Source: a virus (lineage: Duplodnaviria > Caudoviricetes). From it: 64,000 nucleotides of DNA. The stretch is from positions 75,731 through 139,730 of the IMG/VR virus record IMGVR_UViG_3300028886_000055, one strand, 5' to 3'. Within the stretch, counting starts at the first letter, position 1, and each line of letters begins with the position of its first letter. A program made the translations under genes and the position numbers. The notes under the pieces are model-generated. The model made no database searches. It was not told the DNA's origin and worked only from the letters and a program-made list of their open reading frames with translations. This document shows positions 4,073-61,313 of this stretch, piece by piece.

Positions 4073-6311
4073 AATATGAATCAACATCTATTATATTTGT
4101 GTCTATTGTAGCATTAACTTCAGTTGTAGGAGCTTTAGGAATTCTACCTTTGTGAATAATTCCACGTTCATCTTTCCAATAGCCAAAGTCTTCAAATTTA
4201 TCTTGTTGCGAATCTATTTTTGGCTAAACAAACATTAATTCTTCATTAGCAAGAAATGCCATTTGCATAGCAGCTACAATATCAAATTTTCTTTTATTTT
4301 CATAAGAATATCTTGACAATTCATCAAGGATTTCTCTAAACCAAATTTCACCACAATATTCATCAATATAATCAGAGATCATATCAAGTCCATGTTTAAT
4401 TGTAGTTTCGTTGGCTGGAGCACCAAATTGTCGACTTTTACCGTTCTATATATCGGATTGACAGGCTCTAGGTCTTCGCATTAAATAACGATTTTCACAT
4501 TTTTTACTTCTAAAGAATTGAAGTAAAGATATACGAGTAGATTCAAGGCAAGCTTTCGCATTATACCATTGTAATAATCTCAGACACATTACATGTGCAT
4601 CCCTAACTTTTTGTGGCCTATCTTTATAATAAGCTACAATTTGAGGAGGATGCATACCATAAGCACGTCTAAGTATTACTACACAGAAATCAGATGGATC
4701 TTTATAACTAGCAGATGTATCTTCCTAACCTAAATCAATACCGTCAATTCCAGCAACATATAAATTAACTGGAACTTGTTTATCATCATCTATTTTAGGA
4801 GCTTCTAACACATGAACTTTTCCACCTTGTTGTGATACAAATTTCACACCTTCGATCATTTCATCAGTAACAACATTATCTTTAAATATGTATTCCAAAG
4901 TTCCATGCTAGATTGTAGGTACATCTTTACCATTCATAAGTATCCTAGCCATCTATTCTGCAATAAGTGCTTGGTCGAATTGGTTTTCACCTTCAAGAGC
5001 AAATGCTTCTTCTGCTGTAAAACAGTGTTCAGCACATTCGCGTTTATACTCTTTTGGCATACTTAATAGATTGTTTCGAGTTAGATTTCTAAACTTTTTA
5101 ACTTCCTCTCTATCAACTACACCTCTGTCATCAATAAATCGTATATATTTACCTTCTTCTGATTCATATCCATCTTTTAAAATAAAGTCAGCTGCAGATA
5201 CAAAAAATCCTGATAATTTGTATTCACCACTATCAAAATTATTATGTCTGTATGGAAGTATATTAAAAGCAATTGGATTATAAAACATATCTCTTAACTA
5301 ATCCACTGATTTCATATCACCTCCGGTACCAAATACAATTCTTGTACCTATCTTATTACCTCCAACTTCTACAAGAGCATTACCTTTAATATAAGTTTCT
5401 TTTAAAATAGGATTTGAACCTGCTTCTTCGTATAAGAGTAGATCAATACGATCACCACGAAGTTTACTAGACTAATCTATGACTAATCCTTCTATATCAG
5501 AATTCCAGGAGTTTGGTAATTCTTCACGCTATTTATTTATTTTTGATGCCTTTTTATGATAAGCAGTATTCATTTTCTAACGAACGTGTCTCATACCGCC
5601 TTCTGTATCAGCATTTAAAAAGTCTAACTATAGCCAAGCTTTTTTTAATGAGTCAGATACGAATTTGTCAGTTGCAGCAATTATAACATTGTGAGTATTA
5701 CGTCTAGTACTGTAATTATTAACTAATAAACTAGCTCCAATTTCTGACCAGCCAATACCACGACTTTTAACTGTTAAAACATCATGTTTTAATATCTAAC
5801 CCATCTCTATATAATGAAAATATTCGTATTGCTTATCAACAAAAGCTGGAAATATTAAACCTCTACCCTAGCCTGCTTTTTTAACATCAGTTTCGGGTAG
5901 TCTATAATAATTTAAAAAGAAATAGTGATCTCCAGTAATTCTATAACCATTAACACTCATACCGTTATTACATCGATCATATTCCTTTTTCCAAAAATCC
6001 ATATAAGCTTTAGTTCCCTATGGGTATGAACAATATTTACCTGTCTGTAATTTAACTTCTCTAGCTTCTGTAAACCATTCTGGTTTAAAGTCTAAACCCT
6101 TAGTTTTAGTTAACGGTCTGTAACCAGTTAATTCATAAGATAAATCAGAATCAAAATAATCAATTTTATCGTTTAATTTAACGTCCCAAGTCATTACGTC
6201 TTTATTAAATAAAGACTCTCTTAAAGCTTGTATATTATTATCAAGTGCTTGCTACTAGAGTTTATCCTAATTTATTTTTAAAGTAGGATTCTATTTCTTT
6301 TTACGAGGCAT
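4029..6311 (-). CDS. terL: Terminase large subunit, 760 aa, code 15
   Basis: GYRITGDHYFFLNYY; Walker A VKSRGIGWSE; Walker B LLYEEAGS; coupling motif FGTGGD; nuclease YVAGIDGID..SDFCVV; C-terminal KFDIVAAM; track fragments 4446 and 4953 are in this frame. Confidence 0.95.
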
Positions 6312-18338: not shown

Positions 18339-18348
18339 ATAAAATTAG

Positions 18349-18422
18349 TCGGGGATCTCGGACTCGAACCGAGACCTTGGGTTTTAGAGACCCTTGCGCT
18401 AACCTAATTACGCTAATCCCCA
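18349..18422 (-). tRNA. Amber suppressor tRNA (anticodon CUA), Gln-like acceptor
   Basis: TGGGGAT...ATCCCCG-A acceptor; anticodon loop CT-CTA-AA; T loop GGTTCGAGTCC; 5' UGGGG resembles tRNA-Gln. Confidence 0.92.
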
Positions 18423-29667: not shown

Positions 29668-30531
29668 ATGATTAGCAAAAAATACTTTGGAGAGAAAGGT
29701 CTTACCAGTACGTCTGCCAACTATTTGACAAATGTAGGACAAGAAGCCCTTACTGGGTATAAGACTACTTTAGACAATCTGAGATGGTACAGCGAGACTA
29801 TGGTTCTTCTTTCTTCTGGAAAGGAAGTTCCTATGGTGAATGGTAACACACCAACTTTAGAGGAGATTAAAGTCATCATCAACGAGATGAGCAAGATCAA
29901 CGCCTTCTGTGCTTGGATACGTGAAGCCATTAAAGCTAAGGAGGTTCTTGAAGGAGAATTTCCTGATTTCGACGAGTGGAAGGCAGATAAAGAAACAGTA
30001 TCTTCACCTGCTCGTCCTCAACGTTTCACTGAAGCTGATGTTGTAGCCGAGTTTGATGTTAAGAAGCTCAATGAGTATCTTACTCTTGAGGCTTATGCAG
30101 CAACTCTCGGTAAGTTAATTCATCAAAATGGTTCAATTAGCACTGCACGTAAGCAATTACATAACGTGCTAGAAACTCCCAACTCTGTTGATAAGATGGA
30201 TAGCGATGTAGTGATTACACGCTATACTCCGATTCTCAACACAAATGAGGTTGATGATTGGTACATGCAACTTCAAAACAAATACCGTGAGGTAGAACGT
30301 CAACTTAATCAGATCAAGTATCAGATTAAGGAAGAAGTTGCTACACGCAATCGTGTTGCTCAAACTCAATACAACGCTGAACTTAGAAAGTATAATGCTG
30401 AACAAGAGCAATTGTTCGCTGAATACCGTACTGAGTCAGAAGCGTATCGTAATGAGATTGCTAAGTTAAAAATTATCGTTCCTCGAGAACTTGAAGGAAC
30501 GTTCAATCATCTTCAATCTTTAGGTAAGTGA
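29668..30531 (+). CDS. Coiled-coil protein (GLTSTSANYL...AWIREAIKAKE...AATLGKLIH..G), function unknown
   Basis: 287 aa ORF; followed by about 400 nt of non-coding-like patterned sequence. Confidence 0.8.
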   Translation: MISKKYFGEKGLTSTSANYLTNVGQEALTGYKTTLDNLRWYSETMVLLSSGKEVPMVNGNTPTLEEIKVIINEMSKINAFCAWIREAIKAKEVLEGEFPDFDEWKADKETVSSPARPQRFTEADVVAEFDVKKLNEYLTLEAYAATLGKLIHQNGSISTARKQLHNVLETPNSVDKMDSDVVITRYTPILNTNEVDDWYMQLQNKYREVERQLNQIKYQIKEEVATRNRVAQTQYNAELRKYNAEQEQLFAEYRTESEAYRNEIAKLKIIVPRELEGTFNHLQSLGK

Positions 30532-30941
30532 TTTATCTAAAGTAGAATAGGTTCAAGAACTTGATTCTCATTGGAATCTAATCTTGATTTACAGAGATAA
30601 GAAAGAAACGTCATATTTATAAATTATGTACATTACTCAAAGTTTAGTTAACTTTGTACCTTCGTTGGGAAGGACTGGCGTTTCTATCGAAATTAAAGAA
30701 CTCTCTGTCTTCGTCTTCGTTGATAGAAACGGTCTTTGTCTAGGACTTAGACTTTGTTGTAGTTGTTTCTTTCTTATCTTTGACTATTTTTTAAGGCCCT
30801 GTAGTTTAGAAGCAGAACGCAAGATTTTCATTCTTGAGAACACGGAGCGTTACCGTGCTGGGCTACTATAATACAAAACTTCACCAACTATAATCAGCGA
30901 TTTGGAAGTTTATGCAAGCTGAAGTTTTGTATTTTACATAT

Positions 30942-31011
30942 TGTGGGTTAGTGAAACTGGAATCATGTGGGGCTCATAACCCTTCGTTGCCGTTCGAGTC
31001 GGCGCCCGCCA
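30942..31011 (+). tRNA. tRNA-Met(CAU), initiator-like
   Basis: Unpaired 1:72 position; three consecutive G-C pairs GGG-CTCATAA-CCC. Confidence 0.75.
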
Positions 31012-31112
31012 CTAATTTAAAGTTCACGTGAATTTTTAACGTGCTTGGTTTATCATAAGATTGGTTCGACTCCTTAGTGTAACGGTAGCACGATGATAAA
31101 TCAAACATAAAA

Positions 31113-31270
31113 CGGAAAATAGTGTAACGGTAGCACTCCCCTTTAGGTAGGGTACTTCGGGAATAATAGCGCGGAATACCGAAGACGATATATAAATGTT
31201 TCAATTCAATAATTGCGCAGTTATAGAAATATTTATATATTGAGTGAAGGTTCGAATCCTTCTTTTCCGA
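31113..31270 (+). ncRNA. tRNA-like RNA whose anticodon arm is replaced by a three-hairpin domain
   Basis: CGGAAAA/TTTTCCG-A acceptor; D arm GTGT-AACGGTA-GCAC; T arm GAAGG-TTCGAAT-CCTTC; about 100 nt insert. Confidence 0.7.
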
Positions 31271-31387
31271 CTAAATTGGAATTTATTTAATAGAAATGTA
31301 ATTCTTGGTAGTGTAAGTAGGGTTCGATTCCTGTAAATAGTAACTTACTGTATTTTTATTAAATATCTAGCTAGAATTCCAATTTTA

Positions 31388-32038
31388 GATCTCGTAGCTC
31401 AGTTGGTTTTTAGAGCACCACACTTTGATTTAAGAGTGCTATGGCGAGAAATCCCATAGTAGAATCACCTAAATTCGGTGGAAACCCTTTTTATACTGAT
31501 AATATAAATTCATTTGTATATAAAATTTATGTTAAAATAAATATAAAACTTTTGAATATAAATAGCGTCTTGGCTATATCCAAGCAATAATATCAGTAAC
31601 ACTAACCAATAATGTGTAAGGACAATACCGAGCGAAAATAATGAATCAGATAATATATTGAATATTCTGTGGGAAGGAATTGTTCCATACCTGACATTAT
31701 TCATTATAATCGTGTAGAGACTGAACGGGTGATACCGTAAATTAGTAAAGAGATTATATGTGTAGAACGGTGCTGGTGAAATGGGTACCTTTAAGGCTTG
31801 TCCTTTGAAGCATATAATTTGGAGCAGTTCACCCTCCACTAATACGGTACTTAGACAGTCCAGACCACAACAAATGAGATAGTATAGAGCTGGCACGGCT
31901 GTTCGGCTGATATAAACCGAATAATAAATGTGCAAAAAGTTGATTTGTTTCAAACTATCGGTGATGTTTCATTTGGCTATGGTAACATAGAGTGGTAGGT
32001 TAATGTGGGAGTCCTGGGTTCGAATCCCAGCGGGATCA
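31388..32038 (+). tRNA. tRNA-Lys(UUU) split by a group I intron after U34
   Basis: Exons ...CCACACTT | TTAATGTGG... rebuild the loop CTTTTAA. Confidence 0.85.
31426..31999 (+). mobile_element. ORF-less group I intron, 574 nt
   Basis: P1 CACTT/GAGTG with terminal U-G; AAATTCGGTGGAAAC; CAATACCGAGC; GTAGAGACTGAACGGGTGAT; ACAGTCC; terminal G. Confidence 0.85.
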
Positions 32039-32042
32039 CTAA

Positions 32043-32124
32043 GCGGTTGTGCTGTAACTGGTAGCCAGGTCTGGTTTAGGCCCAGATGTCGAAAGGCGTG
32101 GGGGTTCGAGTCCCTTCAACCGCA
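32043..32124 (+). tRNA. tRNA-Leu(UAG)
   Basis: TCTGG-TTTAGGC-CCAGA; long variable arm. Confidence 0.88.
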
Positions 32125-32152
32125 CATTTATTAACAATTAATTTATTTAATT

Positions 32153-32816
32153 ATGAACAAGGTAGTTTATAACAACTGTTATGGAGGATTTGGTTTAAGT
32201 ATGAAGGCAGTTGCTCATATTCTCCGACAGAACAAACCAGATATTGAACTATTCTTTTATAAAGAAGATGTTAAAAATGATGATTGGCACTATACAAAGT
32301 GTAGTGAAGCTGAAGCTACTCACGTCTTTCTGAGAGACTTTGGAGACGAATTTTATTATAAGCAAGTGAATCAAGTACAATTTAATGATAATGTTGTTTA
32401 TGATTCACAAGTTTATACGAGTCGTCATGATCCTCGCTTAATTAAAGCGGTTGAAGAACTCGGAGAAGAAGTTAACAGCGATTACGCAGAACTTCGTATT
32501 GCTGAAATTAATTCTGATTTATATCTTATCCGAGAATATGATGGTCTGGAAAGAGTAGTAACTCCAGAGGATGTGGAATGGATTAAAATTGAATAATATG
32601 AAGAAGCGAAAGAAATTCCCGGATATTCCGTGTATCATAGTAAAATGTGTAGAGCTTTCTGATCAATGGGAAACTGATGCAGATAGAACGCCTATGTTAT
32701 ACTTTAATTCTGCAAAAGAATTAGAAAATTTTGATCCGAATTATTATTATGAAGTTTATCTTATCGAAAACGGAGAACTTGTTCTTAGTAAAAAACTTAG
32801 CACTTATCGAATTTAA
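32153..32816 (+). CDS. Two hypothetical phage genes (32153..32596 with YGGFGLS..RHDPRL..EYDGLE; 32598..32816)
   Basis: ORF track. Confidence 0.7.
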
Positions 32817-32988
32817 ATTGAATATCTCATAATTTCATTTAATGACCTAAGCATGTCTTAAAACTGCTTAAATTGCTCGATTGGCGAAATTCTAGGTAAA
32901 CGCAGTAGACTTAGAGGATATTTTTATTCTAAAGATTTTCATTAACTAAATTTAACAATTTTGACTTGGAAGACTCGAAATTTTTCTT

Positions 32989-32996
32989 TATATTTG
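32989..32996 (+). promoter_or_regulatory. Internal -7 box TATATTTG for the intron HNH ORF
   Basis: TAnnTTTG about 20 nt before the ATG. Confidence 0.55.
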
Positions 32997-33017
32997 TGTA
33001 TATAAATAATACATAAT

Positions 33018-60667: not shown

Positions 60668-60725
60668 GTTAAGTAGATATATGCATCTAAAAGTAAGAAA
60701 ATAAATGTTTAATAATAAGAAATAT

Positions 60726-61313
60726 ATGGAAAAGAAAAGATATAAAATATTGTTCTGCGATCTTGATGGAACGCTAATAGATACAGTCAGTGGAGAAGTA
60801 TTCCCTAAAGGAGTTTGGGATATGCGTTTCAAGTTTGACGTGCTTGAAGCAATAAAGAACATGTCTCCTAAATGTATTTTTATAGCAACAAATCAGGGTG
60901 GTATAGAAAATGGTTTTATAGATGAACTCAGTTTTATACGTAAGATGGAATACATAAAAAGCGCATTATCTGAATATTGTGAATGCGATTATGTAGACTA
61001 CTTGTATTGCTCGTCTAACAACAAGAACTATAAAAACAGAAAACCGAATGTTGGTATGTTGCAAGATCTGCTGTTTCGTTATTTTGCTTCATTCCAATCA
61101 GAATGTAAAAAAGACTGTCTAATGGTTGGCGACGCAAGCGGGAAAGACGGGCAATTCTCCGACAGCGACAAGAGAACTGCCGAAAATTTCGGTATTGACT
61201 ATATGGACATCAATGATTTTGTTGACGAATATGGAAATACTAAGCAACTTGACGCTAGAGAAGGAAATATTGAAGATAAAAAAATTAAACAATATGAAAC
61301 TAATAAGCTATAA
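60726..61313 (+). CDS. HAD-IIIA phosphatase (polynucleotide 3'-phosphatase-like)
   Basis: DLDGTL; TNQGG; RKPNVGM; MVGDASG...SDSD. Confidence 0.88.
   Translation: MEKKRYKILFCDLDGTLIDTVSGEVFPKGVWDMRFKFDVLEAIKNMSPKCIFIATNQGGIENGFIDELSFIRKMEYIKSALSEYCECDYVDYLYCSSNNKNYKNRKPNVGMLQDLLFRYFASFQSECKKDCLMVGDASGKDGQFSDSDKRTAENFGIDYMDINDFVDEYGNTKQLDAREGNIEDKKIKQYETNKL

Follow-up and report, generated by a model that had tools for sequence, protein, structure and literature searches.

To our knowledge, the non-tRNA RNAs of phage tRNA clusters have stayed unexplained since the species 1 and species 2 RNAs of T4 were sequenced in the 1970s. Species 1 RNA (rnaC) is a stable small RNA of the T4 tRNA cluster without a known role (PMC3014915). 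Among tRNAs, the class II and other long-variable-arm molecules comprise tRNA-Ser, Leu, Tyr and Sec and the allo-tRNAs, and certain allo-tRNA-like sequences have been proposed to form a junction of five stems (PMC7609411). In gut phages, the tRNA genes of Lak megaphages carry "enigmatic" small introns that are highly conserved and belong to no known intron class (PMC6784885). Here we describe a tRNA-like RNA that shares features with each of these. On the sequence comparisons given below, we favour, with some reserve, the reading that it is a dedicated tRNA-shaped non-coding RNA gene, very probably non-decoding, and that it is an accessory cassette which a clade of gut or rumen phages would carry within a hypervariable tRNA cluster.

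The window, that is, the whole stretch of 64,000 nt that was analysed, comprises bases 75731-139730 of the IMG/VR record IMGVR_UViG_3300028886_000055 (139,730 bp; Duplodnaviria; Caudoviricetes), the completeness of which is 78% by CheckV estimate. It is AT-rich (GC 29-37%), and its tRNA array is interleaved with HNH and PD-(D/E)XK homing-endonuclease genes. The tRNA-like RNA, 158 nt at window positions 31113-31270, lies inside this array on the strand of the tRNAs, and a promoter and terminator scan found no enrichment. From 5' to 3' it consists of the acceptor strand, a D arm, three hairpins, a T arm and the returning acceptor strand, as follows (L114 and L115 are contigs of relatives that carry diverged full-length copies).

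31113-31119, plus strand: 5' strand of the acceptor stem, CGGAAAA; C1 pairs with G72, and 7 of 7 pairs are kept in the window, L114 and L115
31122-31136, plus strand: D arm with the 4-bp stem GUGU/GCAC and the loop AACGGUA, which contains G18 G19
31138-31153, plus strand: hairpin 1, CCCU/AGGG with the 6-nt loop UUAGGU, at the anticodon-arm position
31155-31184, plus strand: hairpin 2, 6-bp stem CUUCGG/CCGAAG and 18-nt loop (consensus RAAUAAKAGCGCRGAAUA)
31186-31242, plus strand: hairpin 3, made of a 17-bp AT-rich lower stem, an internal loop, the upper helix H3b and the apical loop UGCGCA
31186-31202 with 31226-31242, plus strand: lower stem of hairpin 3, 92-93% paired, with consistent changes
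31209-31213 with 31220-31224, plus strand: H3b, the 5-bp upper helix of hairpin 3, 100% paired
31214-31219, plus strand: apical loop UGCGCA of hairpin 3
31243-31245, plus strand: RGU junction before the T stem; AGU, GGU and GGU in the three full-length copies
31246-31262, plus strand: T arm, stem GAAGG/CCUUC and loop UUCGAAU; 100% of its cells paired
31263-31270, plus strand: 3' strand of the acceptor stem, UUUUCCG, and discriminator A73; CCA is not encoded

The acceptor stem CGGAAAA/UUUUCCG is formed by seven Watson-Crick pairs, beginning with C1-G72 and followed by A73, and U8 and A9 are present between the acceptor and the D arm. The RGU junction could, as we assume from general knowledge of tRNAs, represent tRNA positions 46-48, with U48 opposite A15. 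The 7-bp acceptor, the D arm with G18 G19 and the T-loop consensus are all found in the window, L114 and L115. The neighbouring tRNA-Lys and tRNA-Leu are likewise without an encoded CCA and read A73-C-U/A at this point. A preliminary description of this DNA had proposed an intact acceptor (C1-G72, A73), D and T arms, with the anticodon arm replaced by three hairpins. The three arms are in place, and so are the hairpins CCCT/AGGG (6-nt loop) and CTTCGG/CCGAAG (18-nt loop), while the AT-rich stem, given as 16 bp, exists but measures 17 bp (15 Watson-Crick and 2 G-U pairs). The placement has to be revised: hairpin 1 begins one nucleotide 3' of the D stem, which is the site of a normal anticodon arm, but hairpins 2 and 3 lie in the variable region. 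The most apt description of the element is that of a six-helix junction, or of a tRNA body whose variable region is 88 nt long and holds two hairpins.

Minimum free energy folding arrives at the same layout with -44.7 kcal/mol and a z of -3.6; of 200 shuffles, not one was as stable. The Rfam tRNA model RF00005 matches the element end to end at 38.2 bits against a gathering score of 29, a local insertion of 104 nt taking the place of 18 positions of the model; this match was seen only in E-value mode and is absent from the default Rfam scan listing. No Rfam family other than tRNA gave a match at the element, and ARAGORN at its default settings did not call it. With introns allowed, ARAGORN proposed a Leu(tag) tRNA with a 66-nt intron, which we rejected because its stem is mismatched.

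The relatives' contigs were reached through a 287-aa protein encoded 600 bp upstream of the element, of which about 20 variants with 85-100% identity exist in public assemblies (ENA, Logan). The few distant homologues of this neighbouring protein were binned by their submitters with Prevotella or Parabacteroides (ENA and Logan assemblies), from which we infer that the host is probably a gut or rumen member of the Bacteroidales. All 158 nt are unchanged in two independent samples, L106 (Logan SRR9008756) and L107 (JGI 3300037696), so the gene is not an assembly artefact. Identical DNA is also present in sample SRR11060116. Diverged copies are found at L114:4683-4841 (91% identical to the window) and L115:5276-5434 (71.5%), and a shortened form of 114 nt occurs in a more distant phage lineage (L125:5851-5964, the same as L126), where R1, our covariance model for this RNA, built from an alignment of the three full-length copies, scores 62 bits. 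In the L125 form the D loop is deleted, pair 2-71 is mismatched, position 73 is C and hairpin 3 is reduced to about 20 nt; either the elbow would be dispensable, or this copy may be decaying. Four distinct sequence variants are thus known (window, L114, L115 and L125), the first two of which are close.

The gene is missing from the close relatives L102, L104 and L109-L113, and its absence from L102, L104 and L109 indicates that it is not essential. In L109 the flanks are joined directly, and in the window TAAA stands on either side of the unit. The flanks differ in every gene-bearing lineage, and similarity spans C1 to about position 73; these limits of conservation coincide with tRNA ends, as would be expected were the functional unit an RNA with such ends. 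Wider searches added nothing to the family. IMG/VR was searched with exact and degenerate DNA patterns (acceptor plus T arm; the 5' half; the downstream spacer; the start of the tRNA-Lys intron; the hairpin 2 loop block), which returned no homologue, only one relative without the element; two DNA patterns found none in GTDB genomes; blastn of the region against GenBank phages gave tRNA-Leu matches only; and R1 run over the whole records of five related IMG/VR contigs met ordinary tRNAs only. A scan for the gap between D arm and T loop returned mostly adjacent tRNA pairs and a few oversized tRNA-like genes (L031, L038, L046, L058, L069 and L090), which we rejected as family members, their R1 scores of at most 40 bits being no better than those of plain tRNAs. 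The RNA family is small, and it is absent from Rfam.

The preliminary description had called for a homologue search with covariation analysis, and had set a tRNA mimic against a decayed tRNA with a random insertion. Two alignments bear on this question. In a plain MAFFT alignment of the three full-length copies (window, L114 and L115), which was not guided by structure, the seven-helix structure (acceptor, D, hairpin 1, hairpin 2, hairpin 3 lower stem, H3b and T) leaves 94% of cells paired and has 8 pairs changed on both sides, against 41-53% paired cells and 1-2 double-sided pairs in controls in which the partners were slid by 1-3 columns. RNAalifold, to which the structure was not supplied, returned the same seven helices from this alignment. 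When L125 was added through the covariance model, a procedure that leans towards the model's own structure, 94.6% of cells were paired, with 19 double-sided pairs over all helices, and none of 500 shuffles did as well. Every helix is held by compensatory substitutions. The search thus yielded both homologues and compensation in all helices, and the 8 double-sided pairs among three sequences and 19 among four side with the mimic.

Individual helices illustrate the pattern. Acceptor pair 5-68 changes from A-U in the window to U-A in L115, and D-stem pair 11-24 from U-A to C-G, also in L115. Among the four variants, three of the five T-stem pairs are changed on both sides (GAAGG/CCUUC, GGGGG/CCUCC, AGUGG/CCACU). 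The hairpin 1 stems of the homologues have 5-6 bp (CCCCAC/GUGGGG, CCCAC/GUGGG, CUCAC/GUGAG), with one pair switched from U-A to A-U. All cells of the hairpin 2 stem are paired even though four of its six pairs are changed on both sides (CUUCGG/CCGAAG, CUCCAG/CUGGAG, UUUUGG/CCAAAA), and H3b shows two double-sided and two single-sided changes (A-U to U-A, A-U to G-C, U-G to C-G).

Although hairpin 1 occupies the site of an anticodon arm, it is not built like one. Its loops in the four variants are UUAGGU, AUAGG, GAGGGU and AAGAGGU (5-7 nt), in which AGG alone is constant, and none of the four unites the 5-bp stem, 7-nt loop, U33 and defined anticodon that make up a canonical anticodon arm. Normal codon decoding by this RNA is therefore very unlikely, since the loop varies between 5 and 7 nt and has no fixed U33 or anticodon. 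The preliminary description had suggested a decoy for anticodon nucleases, synthetases or EF-Tu; such roles are conjectural, and the same variation in loop size argues against mimicry of one particular anticodon loop. Proline-accepting tRNAs are marked by C1-G72, A73 and G35 G36. In the present family C1-G72 is found in four of four variants and A73 in three of four, and the GG of hairpin 1 is conserved, but the loop that holds it is non-canonical. The tRNA-Gln genes of these phages score 35-36 bits with R1, above the 20 bits of their tRNA-Pro genes, so that the ancestry of the tRNA body is not fixed as Pro. We also considered that the element is a mere substitute for tRNA-Pro; this was ruled out, as L114 and L115 carry a normal tRNA-Pro(UGG) alongside it. 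In the window, a PD-(D/E)XK nuclease gene occupies the usual tRNA-Pro(UGG) site.

The loop of hairpin 2 is the best-conserved part of the molecule. It keeps 17 of 18 positions where overall identity is 71.5%, and it is conserved more strongly than the tRNA body, so the 18-nt loop likely marks a candidate binding site. Searching the phage genome for an antisense target of this loop gave nothing above shuffled loops. According to the preliminary description, the two large loops of hairpins 2 and 3 were complementary and formed a kissing-loop domain. The complementarity, 11 of 12 pairs with G-U included, is real in the window, where the loop-loop duplex reaches -10.2 kcal/mol against -4.1 +/- 1.9 for shuffled loops (15 of 2000 shuffles were as good); L114 gives -10.7, and the three full-length copies all keep GCGC in both loops. 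Yet the complementarity is not conserved in the homologues: compensatory change is seen in 0 of the 12 pairs, four of the eight pairs outside the GCGC core are broken in L115, the 3' partner is engaged in the covarying local helix H3b instead, and L125 retains the GCGC of the hairpin 2 loop but lacks the hairpin 3 apex. It seems distinctly unlikely, then, that the domain is organised by an intramolecular kissing helix of 12 bp between the large loops. A four-pair GCGC:GCGC contact, intra- or intermolecular, is possible, because those bases never vary.

The surroundings of the element contain further unusual tRNA-related sequences. An initiator-like tRNA(CAU), which scores only 30.2 bits, lies at window 30942-31012 (plus strand) and at L114:4607-4677; three G-C pairs form the base of its anticodon stem, its T stem has 4 bp, and positions 1 and 72 are mismatched. 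In L114 it precedes the tRNA-like RNA by 5 nt, and in L102 and L109 its site is taken by a normal tRNA-Met. Between this tRNA and the element, at window 31020-31112 (plus strand), is a mini-helix composed of the T-loop-like GGTTCGACTCC followed by the D-arm copy TAGTGTAACGGTAGCAC within a closing stem of 8-10 bp; L109 has this element with 91% conservation and an insertion in the 5' stem strand. Seventeen nucleotides of the element's D arm, U8 and A9 included, recur at 31075-31091, 45 nt upstream, and the insert itself is unique in the genome. On the 3' side, L114 (about 4842-5035) and L115 (about 5435-5620) have a noncoding block of about 190 nt directly after the element, which is absent from the window and gave no Rfam match. 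The tRNA-Lys(UUU) at window 31389-32038 (plus strand) is interrupted 3' of U34 by some 580 nt of intervening sequence, which does not match the Rfam group I intron model; an uninterrupted tRNA-Lys at L109:5729-5802 fixes the insertion site.

A second, unrelated tRNA-like gene (gene B) is found in the same cassette of relatives, at L102:11644-11767 and L109 about 5385-5510. A T arm and two long hairpins are present and a D arm is missing, and its acceptor contains tandem U-U mismatches as in T4 rnaC; in L109 one of the hairpins shows two uncompensated mismatches. An apparent homology between the window and L102 from the T arm onward was rejected, since two different genes are involved, gene A (the 158-nt RNA) and gene B. 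In L109, gene B and the upstream mini-helix are present and gene A is absent.

Oversized tRNA-like genes of 111-156 nt were also seen in unrelated IMG/VR phages:

L038 2303-2417 and 3567-3677 (reverse-complement coordinates), minus strand: two oversized tRNA-like genes, including a Pro-like gene
L069 37-189 (reverse-complement coordinates), minus strand: an oversized tRNA-like gene, Thr(UGU)-like
L031:1067-1222, L058:1586-1716 and L046:2739-2884: oversized tRNA-like genes

In some of them (for example, the Pro-like gene of L038 and the Thr(UGU)-like gene of L069) complementary anticodon-stem halves surround an insert of about 40-90 nt. From these genes in unrelated phages, small intervening sequences seem to be recurrent in phage tRNA genes.

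Phage tRNA clusters are now viewed as a battleground with tRNA-cutting host nucleases, and in T4, an RNA ligase and PNK3P-type enzymes mend tRNA cleaved by host anticodon nucleases. The present phage encodes a PNK3P phosphatase (window 60705-61313, plus strand) directly 3' of a tRNA-Thr, and an RNA ligase family gene (C1:1222-1782) at the opposite end of the phage record. By analogy, these two suggest a T4-like RNA repair pair, which would be a circumstantial sign of conflict over tRNAs, with no tie to the tRNA-like RNA itself. The 139.7-kb record yielded no aminoacyl-tRNA synthetase class IIb core, CCA-adding enzyme or RtcB. A tRNA with anticodon CUA, labelled "Pyl" by ARAGORN and an amber suppressor, is encoded at window 18348-18422 (minus strand), and the HNH gene of L115 (4183-4779) contains in-frame TAG codons; together they point to a possible recoding of TAG in this phage group.

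Several other identities were weighed for the element. The preliminary description had allowed for an unknown small intron. On that account, a Pro-type tRNA would be interrupted by hairpins 2 and 3, which would be excised post-transcriptionally, perhaps through a nuclease acting with the RNA ligase and phosphatase of the phage, leaving hairpin 1 as the anticodon arm. The inserts in the L038 and L069 genes and the introns of Lak phage tRNAs (PMC6784885) give it precedents; the adjoining tRNA-Lys is split by an intron and has an intron-less allele in L109; and the ligase and PNK3P genes are at hand in the phage. Nevertheless, no homologue regains a canonical anticodon arm by excision, as the resulting loop would have 5, 6, 6 or 7 nt with U33 and the anticodon inconstant, and no insert-less allele was found, the lineages without hairpins 2 and 3 being without the whole gene. 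Moreover, the hairpin 2 loop outdoes the tRNA body in conservation, which is unusual for a passive spacer, and the intron call of ARAGORN relies on a mismatched stem. We regard this account as quite improbable, and a small intron of the Lak-phage kind is probably not what the sequences represent. A group I intron in a tRNA takes about 200 nt or more, has a P3-P9 core and restores the cloverleaf upon exon ligation. Here the insert has 88-104 nt, RF00028 does not match, no excision restores an anticodon arm and there is no insert-less allele, so a group I intron was ruled out; the earlier judgement that the insert is too small for a group I intron is borne out.

A functionless origin, as a decaying pseudo-tRNA or as a scar left by recombination in a tRNA cluster with many homing endonucleases, would fit a region crowded with HNH and PD-(D/E)XK nuclease genes and tRNA fragments, the 17-nt D-arm repeat 45 nt upstream, the presence or absence of the gene among close relatives and the degraded D arm of the L125 copy. 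Against a decaying pseudogene, all helices show compensatory changes where identity is 71.5%, both the acceptor stem and the T stem are perfect, and the loops are conserved; we hold such an origin to be highly improbable. A miniature tmRNA-like molecule, with a tRNA-like domain and a short internal reading frame, was suggested by a 15-codon frame that the window has within hairpin 3 (AUG near 31195, UGA near 31240), but L114 has lost both start and stop (GUG, UGG) and L115 has no stop, and no conserved ORF exists in the element among the homologues. Its substitutions track base pairing and not codon positions, G3-U70 is absent (the 3-70 pair is G-C), and neither ARAGORN nor the Rfam tmRNA model (RF00023) calls it, which makes this reading barely conceivable. 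YrlA (RF02553) gave no match up to E = 10 in window 30000-33000.

With a dedicated tRNA-shaped RNA as the preferred reading, our best guess at its function is a scaffold RNA that is processed like a tRNA and presents effector loops. The tRNA body (acceptor, T arm and D/T elbow) would allow host RNase P and 3'-end enzymes to excise the RNA from the transcript of the tRNA array and, judging from known tRNA maturation, would permit CCA addition and confer tRNA-like stability. The working surfaces of the RNA would be its three conserved loops: that of hairpin 1 with its AGG, the 18-nt one of hairpin 2, and the apex of hairpin 3 with its GCGC. A partner may bind there, most probably one of the proteins whose usual ligand is tRNA, which could make the RNA a sponge, decoy or adaptor in the infected cell. 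As a guess, prolyl-tRNA synthetase (ProRS) would be the most concrete candidate partner, because C1-G72, A73 and the hairpin 1 GG resemble the bacterial tRNA-Pro identity set. A bolder version, which we think unlikely, is a chargeable non-decoding tRNA mimic that is matured and given its CCA by the host and aminoacylated by ProRS via C1-G72, A73 and the hairpin 1 GG, with the hairpin 2 loop capturing a host factor (for example, a tRNA-directed defence nuclease) or diverting the charged amino acid from the ribosome. If true, it would be an RNA-only counter-defence or reprogramming device in a tRNA scaffold.

Comparison with the known systems places the element between several of them. Like tmRNA and YrlA, it joins an acceptor/T-arm module to non-tRNA helices, but it differs from tmRNA in having neither G3-U70 nor a conserved tag frame, and the termini of YrlA are presumably unlike the acceptor-stem termini found here. 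The Lak tRNA genes are likewise oversized genes of gut phages with a conserved insert outside the known intron classes; they exist as alleles with and without the insert, the removal of which yields a typable tRNA, whereas neither is the case for our element. Class II tRNAs similarly keep the acceptor, D and T arms and place additional helices between the anticodon arm and the T arm. The variable region of the present RNA is, in contrast, 88 nt long and made of two hairpins, one of 57 nt, and the loop at the anticodon position varies in size and has no anticodon, for which reason normal decoding is implausible. It thus appears that a tRNA core tolerates an 88-nt two-hairpin variable region.

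The closest analogue seems to be T4 species 1 RNA, rnaC (NC_000866 70908-71046, equal to L122:2909-3047 on the minus strand; 139 nt), and "rnaC-type tRNA-like stable RNA" would be a descriptive kind, not a curated family. Both RNAs are encoded within phage tRNA arrays and have a homing endonuclease gene as neighbour, and in both, non-tRNA hairpins lie between an acceptor-like stem that closes the molecule and a T arm of canonical form with the loop UUCGAAU. T4 rnaC has two such hairpins, one of them directly 5' of the T arm, compared with three in our element; it lacks a D arm, and its acceptor is weak with two U-U mismatches, whereas the element has a D arm and a perfect acceptor. No sequence homology between the two was detected by R1 on L122:2909-3047, and the Rfam tRNA model gave no match on rnaC. 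Gene B of the relatives (L102:11644-11767) is closer to rnaC than the 158-nt RNA is. The 158-nt RNA may thus stand as a second and far better defined non-tRNA RNA of phage tRNA clusters, by virtue of its full tRNA body, six-helix junction, covariation in every helix and sharply conserved 18-nt loop, and it is far more tRNA-like than T4 rnaC.
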